A stretch of DNA of 64,000 nt from an uncultured Planctomycetota bacterium (GCA_963849325.1 CAWKHF010000012.1:992001-1056000); one strand, 5' to 3'; counted from the stretch's first letter, positions 22,341 to 27,240 are shown. The notes: generated by a model from the sequence alone, not told the origin. Translations and numbers: made by a program.

Positions 22341-24172
22341 ATGTTCCTCTTGACCTTCGACTTCGACGTGGTCGTCGTCGGCGCCGGCCACGCCGGCATC
22401 GAGGCGGCCCTGGCCGCCGCCCGGCTCGGCCTGCGCACCGCGCTGTTGACCATGAACGCCGACGCCGTGGCGCAGATGAGCTGCAACCCGGCCATCGGCG
22501 GCGTCGCCAAGGGCCAGATCGTCCGCGAGATCGACGCCCTCGGCGGCGAGATGGGCAAGGTGATCGACGCCAGCGCCATCCAGTTTCGCATGCTCAACCG
22601 CACCAAGGGGCCGGCCATGCACTCGCCGCGCGCCCAGGCGGACAAGAAGCTGTACCAGTTCACCATGAAGCACCGCGTCGAGGCGCAGCCGAACCTGACG
22701 CTGCGCCAGGAGATGGTCGAAGGACTGGTACTGACGAAGCAGGCGGCGACGGAAGCGGCGTACCGCGTGGACGGCGTCGTCGCCCGCGGCGAGACGCTCT
22801 ATCGCGCCAAGGCGGTGGTGCTGACGACCGGCACCTTCCTCAAGGCGATCATGCACACCGGCGAGGCCAAGACGCGCGGCGGCCGCGCCGGCGACGGCAC
22901 CGCCGAGGCGCTCAGCGACAGCCTCGCCGGCTGCGGTTTCGAGCTGGCCCGCTTCAAGACCGGCACCCCCTGCCGCCTCAACGGCCGGACCATCGACTTC
23001 GTCCAGACGCGAGCGCCAGCCCGGCGACGACGAGCCGCGGCCGTTCAGCTTCGCCACCGAGCGCATCACCCAGCCGCAGATGGATTGCCACATCACCTAC
23101 ACCAACGAGGCCGTCCACGACCTCATCCGCGCCAACCTGCACCGGGCGCCGATGTACTCCGGCCAGATCCACGGCCGCGGGCCGCGCTACTGTCCCTCCG
23201 TCGAGGACAAGGTCGTCCGCTTCGCCGACAAGGACCGCCACCAGATCTTCCTCGAACCGGAAGGCCGCAACACTCTGGAGTATTACTGCAACGGCATCAG
23301 CACCAGCCTGCCCAAGGACGTGCAGCAGGGGATGCTCCGCCTCATCCCCGGCCTGGAGAACGCCGAGGTGCTGCGCTGGGGCTACGCCGTCGAGTACGAC
23401 TACGCCCCGCCGACGCAGCTGCAGCCGACGCTGGAGACGAAGCCCGTCGCCGGCCTGTACTTCGCCGGCCAGATCAACGGCACGACCGGCTACGAGGAGG
23501 CCGCCGCCCAGGGACTGATGGCCGGCATCAACGCCGCCCTGAAGATCAAGGGCGAACCGCCGCTGGTCCTCGACCGCAGCCAGGCGTACATCGGCGTCCT
23601 CATCGACGACCTCGTGACCAAGGGCGTCGATGAGCCGTACCGCATGTTCACCAGCCGGGCCGAGTACCGCCTGCTGCTGCGGCACGACAACGCCGACCGC
23701 CGCCTGACGCCGCTGGGCCGCCGCGTCGGCCTGGTAACGGACGAGGCCTGGGACCGCTTGCAGCGCAAGGAGTCGCCATCGCCGACGCTGACGGATTACC
23801 TTGCAGGGCCATCGGCACGGCGACGCCACGCTGGAACAGTGGCTGCGCCGCACCGAAGTCGATTGGCCGCGAATCGTCGCCATGGAGCCAGGCGTGCAAG
23901 CACTGGGTACGCCGCTCGACGCTCTGGAACAGGTGGTGCTGGAGGCGAAGTATTCCGGCTACATCCACCGGCAGGCGGAGCAGGTCGAGCGGTTTCAGCG
24001 GCTGGAGTCGCGGCCGATCCCGGCCCACTTCGATTACGCGGCCGTGCCGCAGCTCCGTGCCGAGGCCCGCGAGAAGCTCGGCCGCGTTCGTCCCGCGAAT
24101 CTCGGCCAGGCCAGCCGCATCAGCGGCATCAGTCCGGCCGACCTGGCGGTCCTGCTGATCTATCTGGATTGA
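22341..24172 (+). CDS. mnmG: tRNA uridine 5-carboxymethylaminomethyl modification enzyme (two frameshifts)
   Basis: [79 protein letters not shown]. Confidence 0.96.
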
Positions 24173-24433
24173 CAGGTGGTCGAGGTCTTGCGGTCTCGGA
24201 CCTGGCCGGAGCCGGCAATCTGGAGAAGAGGACGCAATGGGCGAGCCTTGGCGCTCCGATAAAGAGAGAGAAGCAAATGCGAGAACCAAAGAGAGAAGGG
24301 CTGGATAAAGTAGTGGGATCGTGGAATAATAGCAGAAAGGAGAACTTTTACCGTCTGCGTAGGATTTGCGTGTTGTGCGGAGGAAGTACGGGTAATCTAA
24401 GGGGTTAGAGCGAAGGCTGAGGGACGATTCGCG

Positions 24434-24461
24434 TTGACACGCTTCACAAGTTGGTTATAAT
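24434..24461 (+). promoter_or_regulatory. Consensus sigma70 promoter
   Basis: TTGACA (24434-24439), 16 nt, TATAAT (24456-24461): perfect hexamers in a high-GC genome. Confidence 0.85.
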
Positions 24462-24467
24462 CGCGGT

Positions 24468-24785
24468 TGTTGGCAAGATTGGCAATCCCCCTCCGGACTG
24501 AATCGGCACCAATCGTACGCGGGGTGGCTCAAGGCCACGGGTTCACACCTTGAGGAAACGGGCGCCGAGTCTATCGTTCGCTGACGCAAGTCGGCGGACG
24601 GTTGAACCAATCAACCACGACTACCGAGAACAACGCGCTGGCGGATCCGGCACGGACCGTGGCGTTGCTTGACGGATGGGCAAGAGGCAGATCAGGGATG
24701 ATACCGGCCTCTGGGCCTCTACGGAAAGAGGCCCGGGACTCCACTCGTGCGACTGGCCATGCGCCAGTAAGGGATGGATGAACGC
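24468..24785 (+). ncRNA. Putative structured 5' leader RNA / ncRNA of unknown family
   Basis: At least seven stems including an 11-bp stem with two G-U pairs and a GCAA loop, an AUCA-GGGA-UGAU hairpin and a candidate pseudoknot; no sizeable ORF on this strand. Confidence 0.55.
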
Positions 24786-25370
24786 ATGAAAACTGTTTTC
24801 ACGACCGGCGAAGCCGCCAAAATCTGCAAGGTCAGTCAGCAGACCATCATCCGTTGCTTCGACAACGGACAGCTCAAGGGCTTCCGCGTGCCCGGCTCGC
24901 GCTTCCGGCGCATCCCGCGCGAGGCTCTGTACAAGTTCATGAAGGACAACGGCATCCCGACCGACGCCCTGGAGAGCGGCAAGCGCAAGGTGCTGCTCGT
25001 GGACGACGACGCCGAGTTGGTCGATCTGATGACCAAGGTCCTCGACGAGGACGGCCGTTTCGAGGTGCGCATCGCCTCCAACGGCTTCGACGCCGGCATG
25101 ATGGTCAAGGAGTATCGTCCCGACATCATCGTCCTGGACGTGATGCTGCCGGACATCAACGGCAAGGAAGTCTGCCACCGCGTCCGCGCCGACACGACCC
25201 TGGAAGACGTGCGCATCCTGTGCATCACCGGCATGATCGAGGAAGACAAGATCCAGGAACTGCGCCTGGCCGGCGCCGACAAGTTCCTGCACAAGCCGTT
25301 CGACATCGAAGAGCTGATCGACGAGATGTGCGCGTTGCTGGAGATCGAGCCGGCCTCGACGCCGGCCTAG
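24786..25370 (+). CDS. Response regulator with N-terminal excisionase/MerR-like HTH and C-terminal receiver domain
   Basis: MKTVFTTGEAAKICKVSQQTIIRCFD..GSRFRRIPR; receiver VLLVDDD, IVLDVMLP, CITG, FLHKPF. Confidence 0.92.
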   Translation: MKTVFTTGEAAKICKVSQQTIIRCFDNGQLKGFRVPGSRFRRIPREALYKFMKDNGIPTDALESGKRKVLLVDDDAELVDLMTKVLDEDGRFEVRIASNGFDAGMMVKEYRPDIIVLDVMLPDINGKEVCHRVRADTTLEDVRILCITGMIEEDKIQELRLAGADKFLHKPFDIEELIDEMCALLEIEPASTPA

Positions 25371-25386
25371 AAGCGATTTCCTGACC

Positions 25387-25451
25387 CTGAGCGGGGGGGC
25401 GTCAGCCCCCTGAGCGGATCGAACCTCAGGGGGCTGACGCCCCCCGCTCAG
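25387..25451. repeat. Nested palindrome (GGGGGCGTCAGCCCCC family)
   Basis: CTGAGCGGGGGGGCGTCAGCCCCCTGAG...CTCAGGGGGCTGACGCCCCCCGCTCAG. Confidence 0.85.
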
Positions 25452-25458
25452 AGTTCCC

Positions 25459-27240
25459 TTGTCACCATGCCAGGAGAGAACTGTGAGGGAGACAGCCGAA
25501 CGGGCGAGTTCGGCCCGGGCGGAGGCCGTGCTGCGCCTGGGCTGGCTTTCGCCGAGTGCCGCGTCCCTGGCTGTCCTCGGTCGGCCGCCGTCGGCCGCGA
25601 CCTGGTCGGCCATCCGCCGCGATCCCGGCGCGGTGCTGCTGGTGGTTCGCCGCGGTGAAGCTCCGTGGCCGGGACGAAGTTCCTCCGCCCCGTCGCCTGC
25701 CTTCTACACCTCCGCCTTCGAGCAAGCCGCGCTGATCGACGACGCCCTGCGTCTGCTCGATTCGTCCGACGGCTTCGTGGATTGGAACCGTCCCTCGGTC
25801 CAGCCGGTCTACGACGCTTGCCTGACCTTCGCTCGTTTGGCGCAGCGCCTGGCCGAGCGTACCGGCCGATGCGATCCGGAAGCGGCGTGGACGTGCGGTC
25901 TGCTGGCCCCGCTGGGCTGGTTGGCCATGTGTGCCATCGATCCGGAGTCCGTGTCGGCGTGCCTGGCCGACCCCGGCCTGCGCGGTGATCCCGCCGAGAC
26001 GCAGCGCCGTCATTGGGGCATCGATCAGGCCGCCATCGCTCGGCGCCTGGCCCGGCGCTGGCGCCTGCCCGCCTGGGCGACCGCCGCCGCCGAGCACCTT
26101 CACCTTCCGGCGCGCCTGGCGCAGAGCTTTCGCGCCGACCCCGTCCTATTCCCGCTGACGCGCCTGGCCGTCGAGGAAGCCCGCAAGCAGGGCGTGGACC
26201 TCGGGCTGGGCGGCGGCGCCTTCCACGCCGAGGATCGCAGTGCCCTGTTGATACCGGAGGGACAGGATCTCGGCGGCAGCCCGGTTGAGCCGGCCACCCT
26301 CCAGGTTTGGCAGGAGCCGCGCGGCGTCCCGCTGCTCCGCGAACTGCTGGAGTTGGCCGCCGAGAACCGCCGTCTCCGCGAGCAACCCTTGCACGATCAC
26401 CTCGAACAGGAGATCGACGCCCTGCACCGCGCCCTGGAGGAGCAGGTACACGGCGAGTCGCAGCGCTTGCAGACGGGCAAGCTGAGCGCCCTCGCCGAGT
26501 TCGCCGCCGGCGCCGGCCACGAGATCAACAATCCGCTGGCCGTCATCTCCGGCCAGGCCCAGTACCTGCTCAGCCACGAGAGCGATTGGTTCCACGACGA
26601 TGCCGAAGGGGCGCCGCGCAAGGCGCTGGAGGCGATCGTCGCGCAGACACGGCGCATCCACGGCATCCTGCGCGATCTGATGCAATTCGCCAAGCCGGCG
26701 CCGGCGTCTCCGGGCTGGCTCGACCTGCCGGCGCTCCTGGGCGAGGTGGCCGCCGGCCTGGGCGAGTTGGCGGCGCAGCGTCGCGTCCGCATCGAAGTGG
26801 CGGTGCAGCCCGACCGACTGCCGATCTACGCTGACGCCGTTCAGGTCCGCGCCGCCCTGTCCTGTCTGCTCCGCAACGCCATCGAGGCGGCGCCGGCCGA
26901 CGGCTGGGCGCGCCTGGTGCTGCGCCGGCCGGCCGAAGGCGAGCCGGTCGAGGTCGCCGTCGAGGACAATGGACCTGGACCTGAGCTGGCCCAGCGACCG
27001 CACCTGTTCGACCCGTTCTACTCCGGCCGTACCGCCGGACGCGGGCGCGGACTGGGACTGCCCATCGCCTGGCGCTTGGCCCATTTGCAGGGCGGCGACG
27101 TCCGCCTCGACCCGCCGCGCCGCCACGAACCGACGCGCTTTGTCCTGACCTTGCCGCGCCTGACCCTGCCTGACAGCGAGGTTTCCGACCCCGCCCTCCT
27201 ATCTCTCTCGTGTACCGCCAACGGCCGGCACGCTGGCTGA
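25459..27240 (+). CDS. HDOD-domain cytoplasmic sensor histidine kinase (start uncertain)
   Basis: HDOD-like IRRDPGAVLL, AWTCGLLAPLGW, RRWRLP; HisKA AGAGHEINNPL, LLRNAIEA, VEDNGPG, FDPFYSG, GRGLGL. Confidence 0.88.
   Translation: MSPCQERTVRETAERASSARAEAVLRLGWLSPSAASLAVLGRPPSAATWSAIRRDPGAVLLVVRRGEAPWPGRSSSAPSPAFYTSAFEQAALIDDALRLLDSSDGFVDWNRPSVQPVYDACLTFARLAQRLAERTGRCDPEAAWTCGLLAPLGWLAMCAIDPESVSACLADPGLRGDPAETQRRHWGIDQAAIARRLARRWRLPAWATAAAEHLHLPARLAQSFRADPVLFPLTRLAVEEARKQGVDLGLGGGAFHAEDRSALLIPEGQDLGGSPVEPATLQVWQEPRGVPLLRELLELAAENRRLREQPLHDHLEQEIDALHRALEEQVHGESQRLQTGKLSALAEFAAGAGHEINNPLAVISGQAQYLLSHESDWFHDDAEGAPRKALEAIVAQTRRIHGILRDLMQFAKPAPASPGWLDLPALLGEVAAGLGELAAQRRVRIEVAVQPDRLPIYADAVQVRAALSCLLRNAIEAAPADGWARLVLRRPAEGEPVEVAVEDNGPGPELAQRPHLFDPFYSGRTAGRGRGLGLPIAWRLAHLQGGDVRLDPPRRHEPTRFVLTLPRLTLPDSEVSDPALLSLSCTANGRHAG

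Follow-up and report, generated by a model that had tools for sequence, protein, structure and literature searches.

The stretch of DNA analysed here, referred to as the window, comprises 64,000 nucleotides (nt) from an uncultured Planctomycetota bacterium (GCA_963849325.1 CAWKHF010000012.1:992001-1056000). On its + strand it carries a regulator gene (24786..25370, 194 amino acids) whose product combines an HTH_17 domain (PF12728) with a receiver domain (PF00072). The gene has a long leader, and comparison with orthologous loci indicates that the end of this leader, from 24676 to 24791 and only there, is a structured cis-regulatory RNA on the sense strand whose helices are kept by compensating changes. 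From the resemblance of a hairpin motif to a known docking site we propose, with slightly more belief than doubt, that the leader would place translation of the regulator under the control of CsrA. An earlier note on this DNA had suggested an undescribed, conserved, cis-acting RNA element on the sense strand ahead of the HTH-receiver regulator, and covariation bears this out. The same note had described a structured RNA of ~320 nt; over that whole length the description did not hold, conservation being limited to ~30 nt at its start and ~115 nt at its end.

The window is part of a Gemmataceae genome of 8.16 Mb (14 contigs, 84.7% complete), and its nearest public records are from Gemmataceae and Gemmatales. 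An orthologue of the regulator, at 74-100% identity, is present in 38 of 41 related genomes from three families, and the three genomes that lack it are only 64-80% complete. The protein is not named by any model in an NCBIfam search, and these bacteria may use it as a core regulator. Its start is the ATG at 24786, as an upstream in-frame ATG at 24774 loses frame in the relatives whose sequences were compared. For the comparison we gathered 30 loci from related genomes and 80 from public contigs (80 of the 534 relatives reported), which yielded 97 distinct leaders. By BLAST the leader has a conserved zone on either side of a variable middle, one made up of the promoter and ~30 transcribed bases after it, the other of the final ~110-140 nt; leader length ranges from 144 to 545 nt.

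The conserved 3′ module (24676..24791, + strand) consists of three hairpins designated SL1, SL2 and SL3, a linker between SL2 and SL3, the ribosome-binding site (RBS) and the start codon. Because a plain MAFFT alignment followed by RNAalifold gave only the helix at the base of SL2, with the variable hairpins misaligning, we built a covariance model of 15 pairs, R1, from a MAFFT alignment of 82 leaders. R1 matched 89 of the 97 distinct orthologous loci (435 kb searched), always abutting the ATG, and one locus with an insertion was matched twice. In the 8.16 Mb of the window genome its single match was 24676-24791, at 98.9 bits, and 150 other genomes sampled from the phylum gave none under strict filters with 24 candidates scored per genome. 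In the R1-fitted alignment 88.6% of cells pair, as compared with 76.3% in shuffles, and double changes occur in 14 of the 15 pairs, amounting to 179 cells (60.6±10.2 in shuffles). The covariation score was 0.427 against 0.204 in shuffles, and no observed value was reached by any of 500 shuffles. Controls in which the partners were slid by one to three columns, which keep the relatedness of the sequences, scored at most 0.16. As an alignment fitted to a model is biased in favour of the modelled structure, the count was repeated on the structure-blind MAFFT alignment, where 82.8% of cells pair (74.1% in shuffles), double changes fill 129 cells (52.4±8.2) and the score is 0.350 (0.202). The SL2 base helix was found independently by RNAalifold on this alignment. 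Pairing in the R1 alignment is 88.6% on the + strand and 81.6% on the − strand, and the 134 G-U cells, set against 42 A.C cells, favour the + strand as the one that pairs. A mutual-information scan for further pairs returned as its top pairs the helices already modelled. Orthologous leaders were where the earlier note had proposed to look for covariation, and the three 3′ stems do covary across the order.

SL1 (24690..24703, +) is a short stem presenting UCAGGGAUGA at 24692-24701, with the core CAGGGAUG at 24693-24700. The window genome adds an outer stem around it (24683-24688 / 24707-24712), an AGAGGC/GCCTCT pairing that is not kept in the other genera inspected by eye. The SL1 stem itself covaries, with 2.59 consecutive pairs compared to 1.83 when the arms are permuted and a maximum of 2.23 in 1000 permutations. 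In a count over the 97 distinct leaders without pre-selection, 87 have the core CANGGANG (CA-N-GGA-N-G) at 80-115 nt before the ATG, and 81 matches sit 90-102 nt upstream; shuffled leaders averaged 1.2 and never exceeded 4. The full 10-mer, (A/U)CANGGANG(U/A), is present in 75 of the 97, and several of the ten leaders with no core in range have the motif further upstream through insertions, or a one-letter variant of it. The flanks of the motif are U in 74 of 80 sequences and A in 70 of 80. Within it, the first N (N1) is A in 28, G in 27, C in 20 and U in 5 of the 80, while the second (N2) is U in 31, C in 27, A in 18 and G in 4. A G at N2 would give the usual Shine-Dalgarno core, and the rarity of this letter argues against a decoy ribosome site. 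The earlier note had read the GGGA loop as a GNRA tetraloop; since N1, the first letter of that loop, varies among all four bases and what is conserved is CA-N-GGA-N-G, this reading falls away. PMC6849547 and PMC4353343 give (A/U)CANGGANG(U/A) as the docking consensus of RsmE/CsrA, attributed there to Schubert 2007 and Lapouge 2008, and the SL1 10-mer of the window and of most leaders agrees with it.

SL2 (24707..24741, +) is a long hairpin, with a stem formed in the window by GGGCCTCT (24713-24720) and AGAGGCCC (24727-24734) and an apical loop of ACGGAA (24721-24726). A single hairpin is predicted here in 88 of 90 aligned matches (median z of -2.8), and all five base pairs at the base of the stem show double changes. 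The sequence of SL2 is otherwise free to vary, and its length runs from 24 to 115 nt, distributed over the three modulo 3 classes as 41/32/17. GGA occurs in the predicted apical loop in 44 of the 90 matches, typically as (A/U)CGGA. SL3 (24752..24768, +) is a 6-bp hairpin, ACUGGC / GCCAGU, that abuts the RBS; double changes are found at all six pairs, an example being alignment columns 211/265, which are UA in 33, CG in 32 and GC in 6 sequences. We also considered a leader peptide or upstream open reading frame acting as an attenuator, and ruled it out because SL2 lengths fall in all three modulo 3 classes and the ATG inside SL1 is not conserved: most relatives have ACG, AAG or AGG in its place, U being the letter at N2 in 31 of 80.

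The ribosome-binding region, AAGGGAUGGAU (24769..24779, +), has two GGA triplets. GGA is present between -20 and -3 in 84 of 97 leaders, as opposed to 40% of a rough gene set from the window genome, and ANGGA in 42 of 97 as opposed to 13%; GGA is common in ribosome-binding sites anyway, which makes this a weak test. Over whole leaders GGA was counted 667 times (494±20 expected) and ANGGA 274 times (107±10 expected), and within the genus an extra A-N-GGA lies between an additional covarying hairpin and SL1. The RBS has no consistent intrinsic pairing partner across leaders; a C/U-rich tract near the 5′ end was tried as such a partner and rejected, its pairing with the RBS being inconsistent. 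Between SL2 and SL3 runs the conserved single-stranded linker CCACUCGUGCG (24741..24751, +), of which UCGUGCG is the complement of CGCAUGA around the start codon (24783-24789). This complementarity is kept in 83.4% of cells in register and in 24-50% when slid. The helix shows no covariation beyond shuffles, where the AUG itself cannot covary, and its probability exceeds 0.5 in only 21% of 89 sequences. We regard it as a candidate OFF helix. Pairing of the linker with codons 5-7 was rejected, as it is weak and lost in the Gemmata group. Conservation of the linker is not explained by CsrA.

Members of the CsrA family (PF02599) score above cut-off in all 41 related genomes, with 9 matches in the window genome and from 1 to 14 in its relatives. 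Model bacteria have a single csrA gene, next to which the 9 matches look like a large expansion. In the window genome, a paralogue of 77 amino acids scores above the two NCBIfam cut-offs for CsrA equivalogs and also matches CsrA/RsmE chains of known structure, among them that of the RsmE-RNA complex 2jpp, with E around 1e-13. Three sequence-level criteria for CsrA thus come together, a hairpin consensus site, a GGA near the start and a csrA gene, and binding is predicted. A hairpin site upstream combined with GGA at the RBS is the layout of a CsrA leader, and it is on this ground that we propose docking of a CsrA dimer. We hypothesize that a strong promoter of the housekeeping type would produce the regulator mRNA with its long leader, and that the last ~115 nt would fold into three hairpins right before the RBS. 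SL1 shows UCA-N-GGA-N-GA, SL2 often (A/U)CGGA, and the ribosome-binding region more GGA. A CsrA-family dimer may bind the SL1 loop together with another GGA, that of the RBS or that of the SL2 loop, and folding of SL2 and SL3 would bring the two docking sites nearer to each other. Such docking would set the rate of ribosome initiation on the regulator message, and repression is the outcome that this layout would most commonly give. As ribosome-site masking by the leader itself is inconsistent and no terminator was found (below), control by a factor acting in trans is a better fit than a switch contained in the RNA itself.

The promoter (24426..24461, +) consists of GATTCGCG (24426-24433), TTGACA (24434-24439), a 16-bp spacer and TATAAT (24456-24461). 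It had been called perfect in the earlier note, and with a score of 12/12 we can confirm this; it is one of three promoter-like sites in 23900-25600, where 0.2 are expected. The sole other + strand site in this interval sits further upstream, so that no promoter-like site is nearer to the ATG. A match of at least 10/12 with a 16-bp spacer occurs 147-378 nt 5′ of the ATG in 30 of 30 loci from related genomes, and a match of this quality and spacing in 98 of the 110 fetched loci, duplicates included; one of the 12 failures has only 101 nt of upstream sequence. In the orthologue of a sister family (73-76% identity) the promoter lies 154-338 nt upstream in six of six loci. With the promoter kept at a distance in relatives, transcription from a strong promoter with a long leader is an ancestral trait of the gene. 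We infer a transcription start near 24468 and a leader of ~318 nt. As for RNA, the regulator coding sequence is matched by 807-1514 contigs from relatives per run in four soil RNA libraries. On the leader, contigs cover 24545-24770 and 24628-24771, and one, at 24670-24811, joins the module to the coding sequence. These data are contigs from which start, end and strand are unreadable, and parts of the leader left uncovered prove nothing.

Several observations weigh against CsrA as the partner of the leader or limit how far the evidence goes. The proposed link is drawn from motif resemblance. The GGA of SL1 and that of the RBS are ~85 nt apart in sequence, which exceeds the distances over which a single CsrA dimer has usually been shown to link two sites, so that bridging by one dimer would need SL2 and SL3 to be folded. 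The SL1 stem is short, averaging 2.6 pairs past its closing C-G and having only 2 in the window genome, and orthologues of the sister family keep the long leader with the core in just two of six. Related sequences make the shuffle controls overstate significance, and the shuffle counts are not to be taken as probabilities. The RNA-library contigs also cover 24420-24463, promoter letters included, which makes read-through transcription or DNA carry-over possible. Across the window genome, hairpin-presented cores (stem of at least 2) upstream of rough gene calls number 106 sense and 55 antisense; this roughly twofold excess is uninformative, since many of the cores are ordinary ribosome-binding sites and the gene caller is crude. 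The leader of flagellin, which in other phyla is a classic target of CsrA and served here as positive control, has no full CsrA consensus, and FliW was not found in the window genome, which is 84.7% complete. Nor did a simple scan of this genome find a cluster of sites like that of CsrB/RsmZ. That scan gave 75 clusters of at least 3 cores within 250 nt, of which 12 are mainly noncoding and none was judged Csr/Rsm-like.

In addition to these results, a few features of the CsrA family and of the motif scan were noted in passing. Copies in the window genome include L133:207-437 (−), L134:188-385 (−) and L135:203-400 (−), and in the csrA paralogue L135 a hairpin with CA-N-GGA-N-G overlies the RBS of the gene itself. 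The motif scan also picked up intergenic tandem and inverted ACACGGAT(A/G) units at G000:C13:47172-47360 and G000:C6:20287-20452; these look like a clustered protein-binding array and not like CsrA sites.

The module could instead be a self-contained sensor, a small-molecule riboswitch or a thermometer whose refolding would open or close access to the start site with no part for CsrA. We find this improbable. It shares with riboswitches ahead of signalling genes, such as the cyclic-dinucleotide classes that the earlier note had suggested, a long conserved leader with covarying helices, here too ahead of a signalling gene, and the linker complementary to the start codon could provide an OFF state. 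It differs from them in that Rfam at gathering score had no match in the 64-kb window or in 20 orthologous loci, and only two chance-level matches at E up to 10 over 24150-24850, in line with the earlier note, which had not recognised the RNA as tmRNA, RNase P, SRP, 6S or a known riboswitch. The conserved letters lie in the linker and in hairpin loops, where they fit a protein docking site, and no multi-helix junction core is conserved. SL2 varies freely in sequence and in length, which also speaks against a sensor. No terminator-like site exists on the + strand between 23900 and 25600, a result that also argues against the separate small RNA (sRNA) proposed as one option in the earlier note. 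Finally, the RBS is not consistently sequestered by any partner, the helix of linker and start codon lacks covariation, and folding energy is unremarkable.

We take more seriously, while still doubting it, that the hairpins serve another partner or purpose, such as pairing of an sRNA with the GGA loops or the linker, another RNA-binding protein, or protection from RNase. Both CACUCGUGCG in the linker and the AGAGGC stretch before SL1 are conserved yet unexplained by CsrA. The genome holds no second copy of the module, and it is thus no regulon-wide element, and the heavy representation of the coding sequence in the soil RNA libraries suggests a stable or abundant message. Against this, nothing in such a view would lead one to expect SL1 to fit the CsrA consensus exactly and to vary only at its N positions, and no candidate sRNA was identified. 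Least probable is a view in which conservation is that of DNA alone, as operators of the regulator or of other factors, and the RNA folds are incidental. The direct repeat near the 5′ end of the leader, which keeps a constant distance from the -10 element and has no folding signal, would suit such sites, as proteins with such HTH domains can bind direct repeats head to tail. For the 3′ module the compensating changes in 14 of 15 pairs keep pairing and not sequence, G-U cells far outnumber A.C cells, and the shape of SL2 is kept while its sequence changes. A DNA-only reading is viable for 24470-24485 only.

Control by CsrA would place the leader beside CsrA/RsmA/RsmE-repressed leaders, for which PMC6849547 (the cfcR leader) and PMC4353343 (leaders sought by means of the consensus) serve as comparison. 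Common to both are a GGA-centred consensus site on a short hairpin and a further GGA at the RBS, and the genome here has canonical csrA genes. The present leader differs in that its best site is ~95 nt upstream of the start with two hairpins between site and RBS, in its Planctomycetota host with 9 CsrA-family matches, and in conservation of the whole module, linker and SL3 included, beyond the need of two docking sites. The sponge RNAs CsrB, CsrC, RsmX, RsmY and RsmZ also have several GGA-loop hairpins on one RNA; unlike them, the leader matches no Rfam family, whether at gathering score or, chance-level matches aside, at E up to 10, runs on into a coding sequence, has no terminator and offers only 2-3 loop sites. 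The two-component system BarA-UvrY / GacS-GacA is under CsrA feedback, and the resemblance lies in a two-component regulator whose expression would be CsrA-controlled. Here the regulator is an HTH_17-receiver protein, and an RNA antagonist of CsrA was not found in the genome scan.

Few regulatory RNAs are known from Planctomycetota, and we found no study of CsrA targets in Planctomycetes or Gemmataceae in the literature searched, with subscription journals and supplements outside the search. The leader is a concrete candidate for a CsrA target, being single-copy, order-wide, supported by covariation and ahead of a highly conserved regulator. If CsrA binds, large CsrA families, with up to 14 matches per genome, would be tied to a central signalling module; if it does not, the module is an orphan structured RNA. 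Taking the comparison further, we speculate that Gemmatales may have built a Gac/Rsm-like circuit from unrelated parts, in which one of the many CsrA paralogues, dedicated to this single-copy leader, would gate translation of the regulator as an ultra-conserved master regulator. The regulator would repress itself through the repeat at +3 to +18 and perhaps drive an unseen CsrA antagonist, and the linker OFF state would be resolved by CsrA or a ligand. This is a long shot, and if true it would make the module a composite protein-and-structure switch of an undescribed kind.

The 5′ conserved zone was characterized from a stack of 85 distinct promoter regions anchored on the -35 hexamer. The DNA box GTTAGAGC (24404..24411, +) lies ~25 bp 5′ of the -35 and recurs in the stack as (A)GTTA(G/C)AGC; both it and GATTCGCG, which abuts the -35, are common to most of the 85 regions. 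The box is possibly an activator or UP-type site. The direct repeat TTGGCAAGA / TTGGCAA (24470..24485, +) spans ~+3 to +18 of the inferred transcript, and its consensus, GG-Y-AAG-N3-GG-Y-AA, stands at a constant distance from the -10 in the promoter-anchored stack. It is the only noncoding double repeat of this form (GG-N-AAG-N3 type) in the intergenic DNA of the genome, where AAGATTGGCAA was counted 7 times and a TGGNAA double repeat 4 times genome-wide. The repeat could be a DNA operator for the regulator itself, a reasonable guess given that HTH domains of this class can bind direct repeats. A sigma-54 reading of the TGGCA repeat was rejected by eye, as the spacing is two bases shorter than the consensus. 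The C/U-rich tract TCCCCCTCC (24486..24494, +) follows 3′ of the repeat and has moderately conserved 'c...cc' columns.

The stems that the earlier note listed throughout the leader were all found on the + strand at the coordinates it gave, and most are also in the minimum-free-energy fold. They comprise TCGGCACC (24503-24510) with GGCGCCGA (24561-24568), which form 7 of 8 pairs with one A.C mismatch; an 11-bp stem at 24575-24600 with a GCAA loop; GTTGA (24601-24605) with TCAAC (24611-24615); and CAACGC (24631-24636) with GCGTTG (24662-24667). Nearer to the gene are AGAGGC (24683-24688) with GCCTCT (24707-24712), enclosing AUCA-GGGA-UGAU, the SL2 stem given above, and ACTGGC (24752-24757) with GCCAGT (24763-24768), the two arms of SL3. 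The variable middle (24495..24675, +) contains the hairpins 24503-24568, 24575-24600, 24600-24616 and 24631-24667, and 24530-24677, which holds four of the stems in the earlier note, is unalignable in six of nine same-genus loci (L003, L004, L006, L007, L009 and L010). The predicted stems at 24503-24667 are real in the window genome but lineage-specific. Duplicated AGAGGC and GCCTCT copies had been taken in the earlier note to allow alternative folds, a suggestion that loses its footing since the copies are absent in the 10 other leaders of the genus that were aligned (L002 keeps part). Folding energy was rejected as evidence for structure, being not strand-specific and mostly unremarkable: the leader has a z of -1.92 on the + strand (7 of 100 shuffles fold as well) and of -2.66 on the − strand. 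In 85 leaders the 5′-most 70 nt show no excess folding, with a median z of -0.18, and the medians for the middle and for the 3′ 115 nt are -1.03 and -1.02.

The leader lies in a 614-bp intergenic gap between the end of mnmG at 24172 and the regulator ATG at 24786. The upstream mnmG/gidA gene (22341-24172, +) is broken across three reading frames, with 22341-~23000 corresponding to positions 1-205 of the GIDA profile, 23080-23760 to positions 233-390, and 23801-24172 to the C-terminal domains. The split implies two frameshifts, and the gene is either a pseudogene or affected by indel errors of the assembly; if the latter, single-base indels are possible elsewhere in the window, the leader included. 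Downstream of the regulator is a gene for an HDOD-HisKA-HATPase histidine kinase (25459..27240, +; PF08668, PF00512 and PF02518), the likely partner of the regulator. Between the two genes, just past the regulator stop codon, an inverted repeat occupies 25384-25454; its arms at 25394-25414 and 25425-25445 are 21 nt long and 100% complementary, are extended by 25384-25398 / 25440-25454, and are followed by no T-run. It may mark a processing site, form a terminator-like hairpin or belong to a repeat element. A paralogous HTH-receiver gene with 36% identity to the regulator is found ~7 kb before the window (G000:C12:984259-984816), and it represents a separate second family in nearly all relatives.

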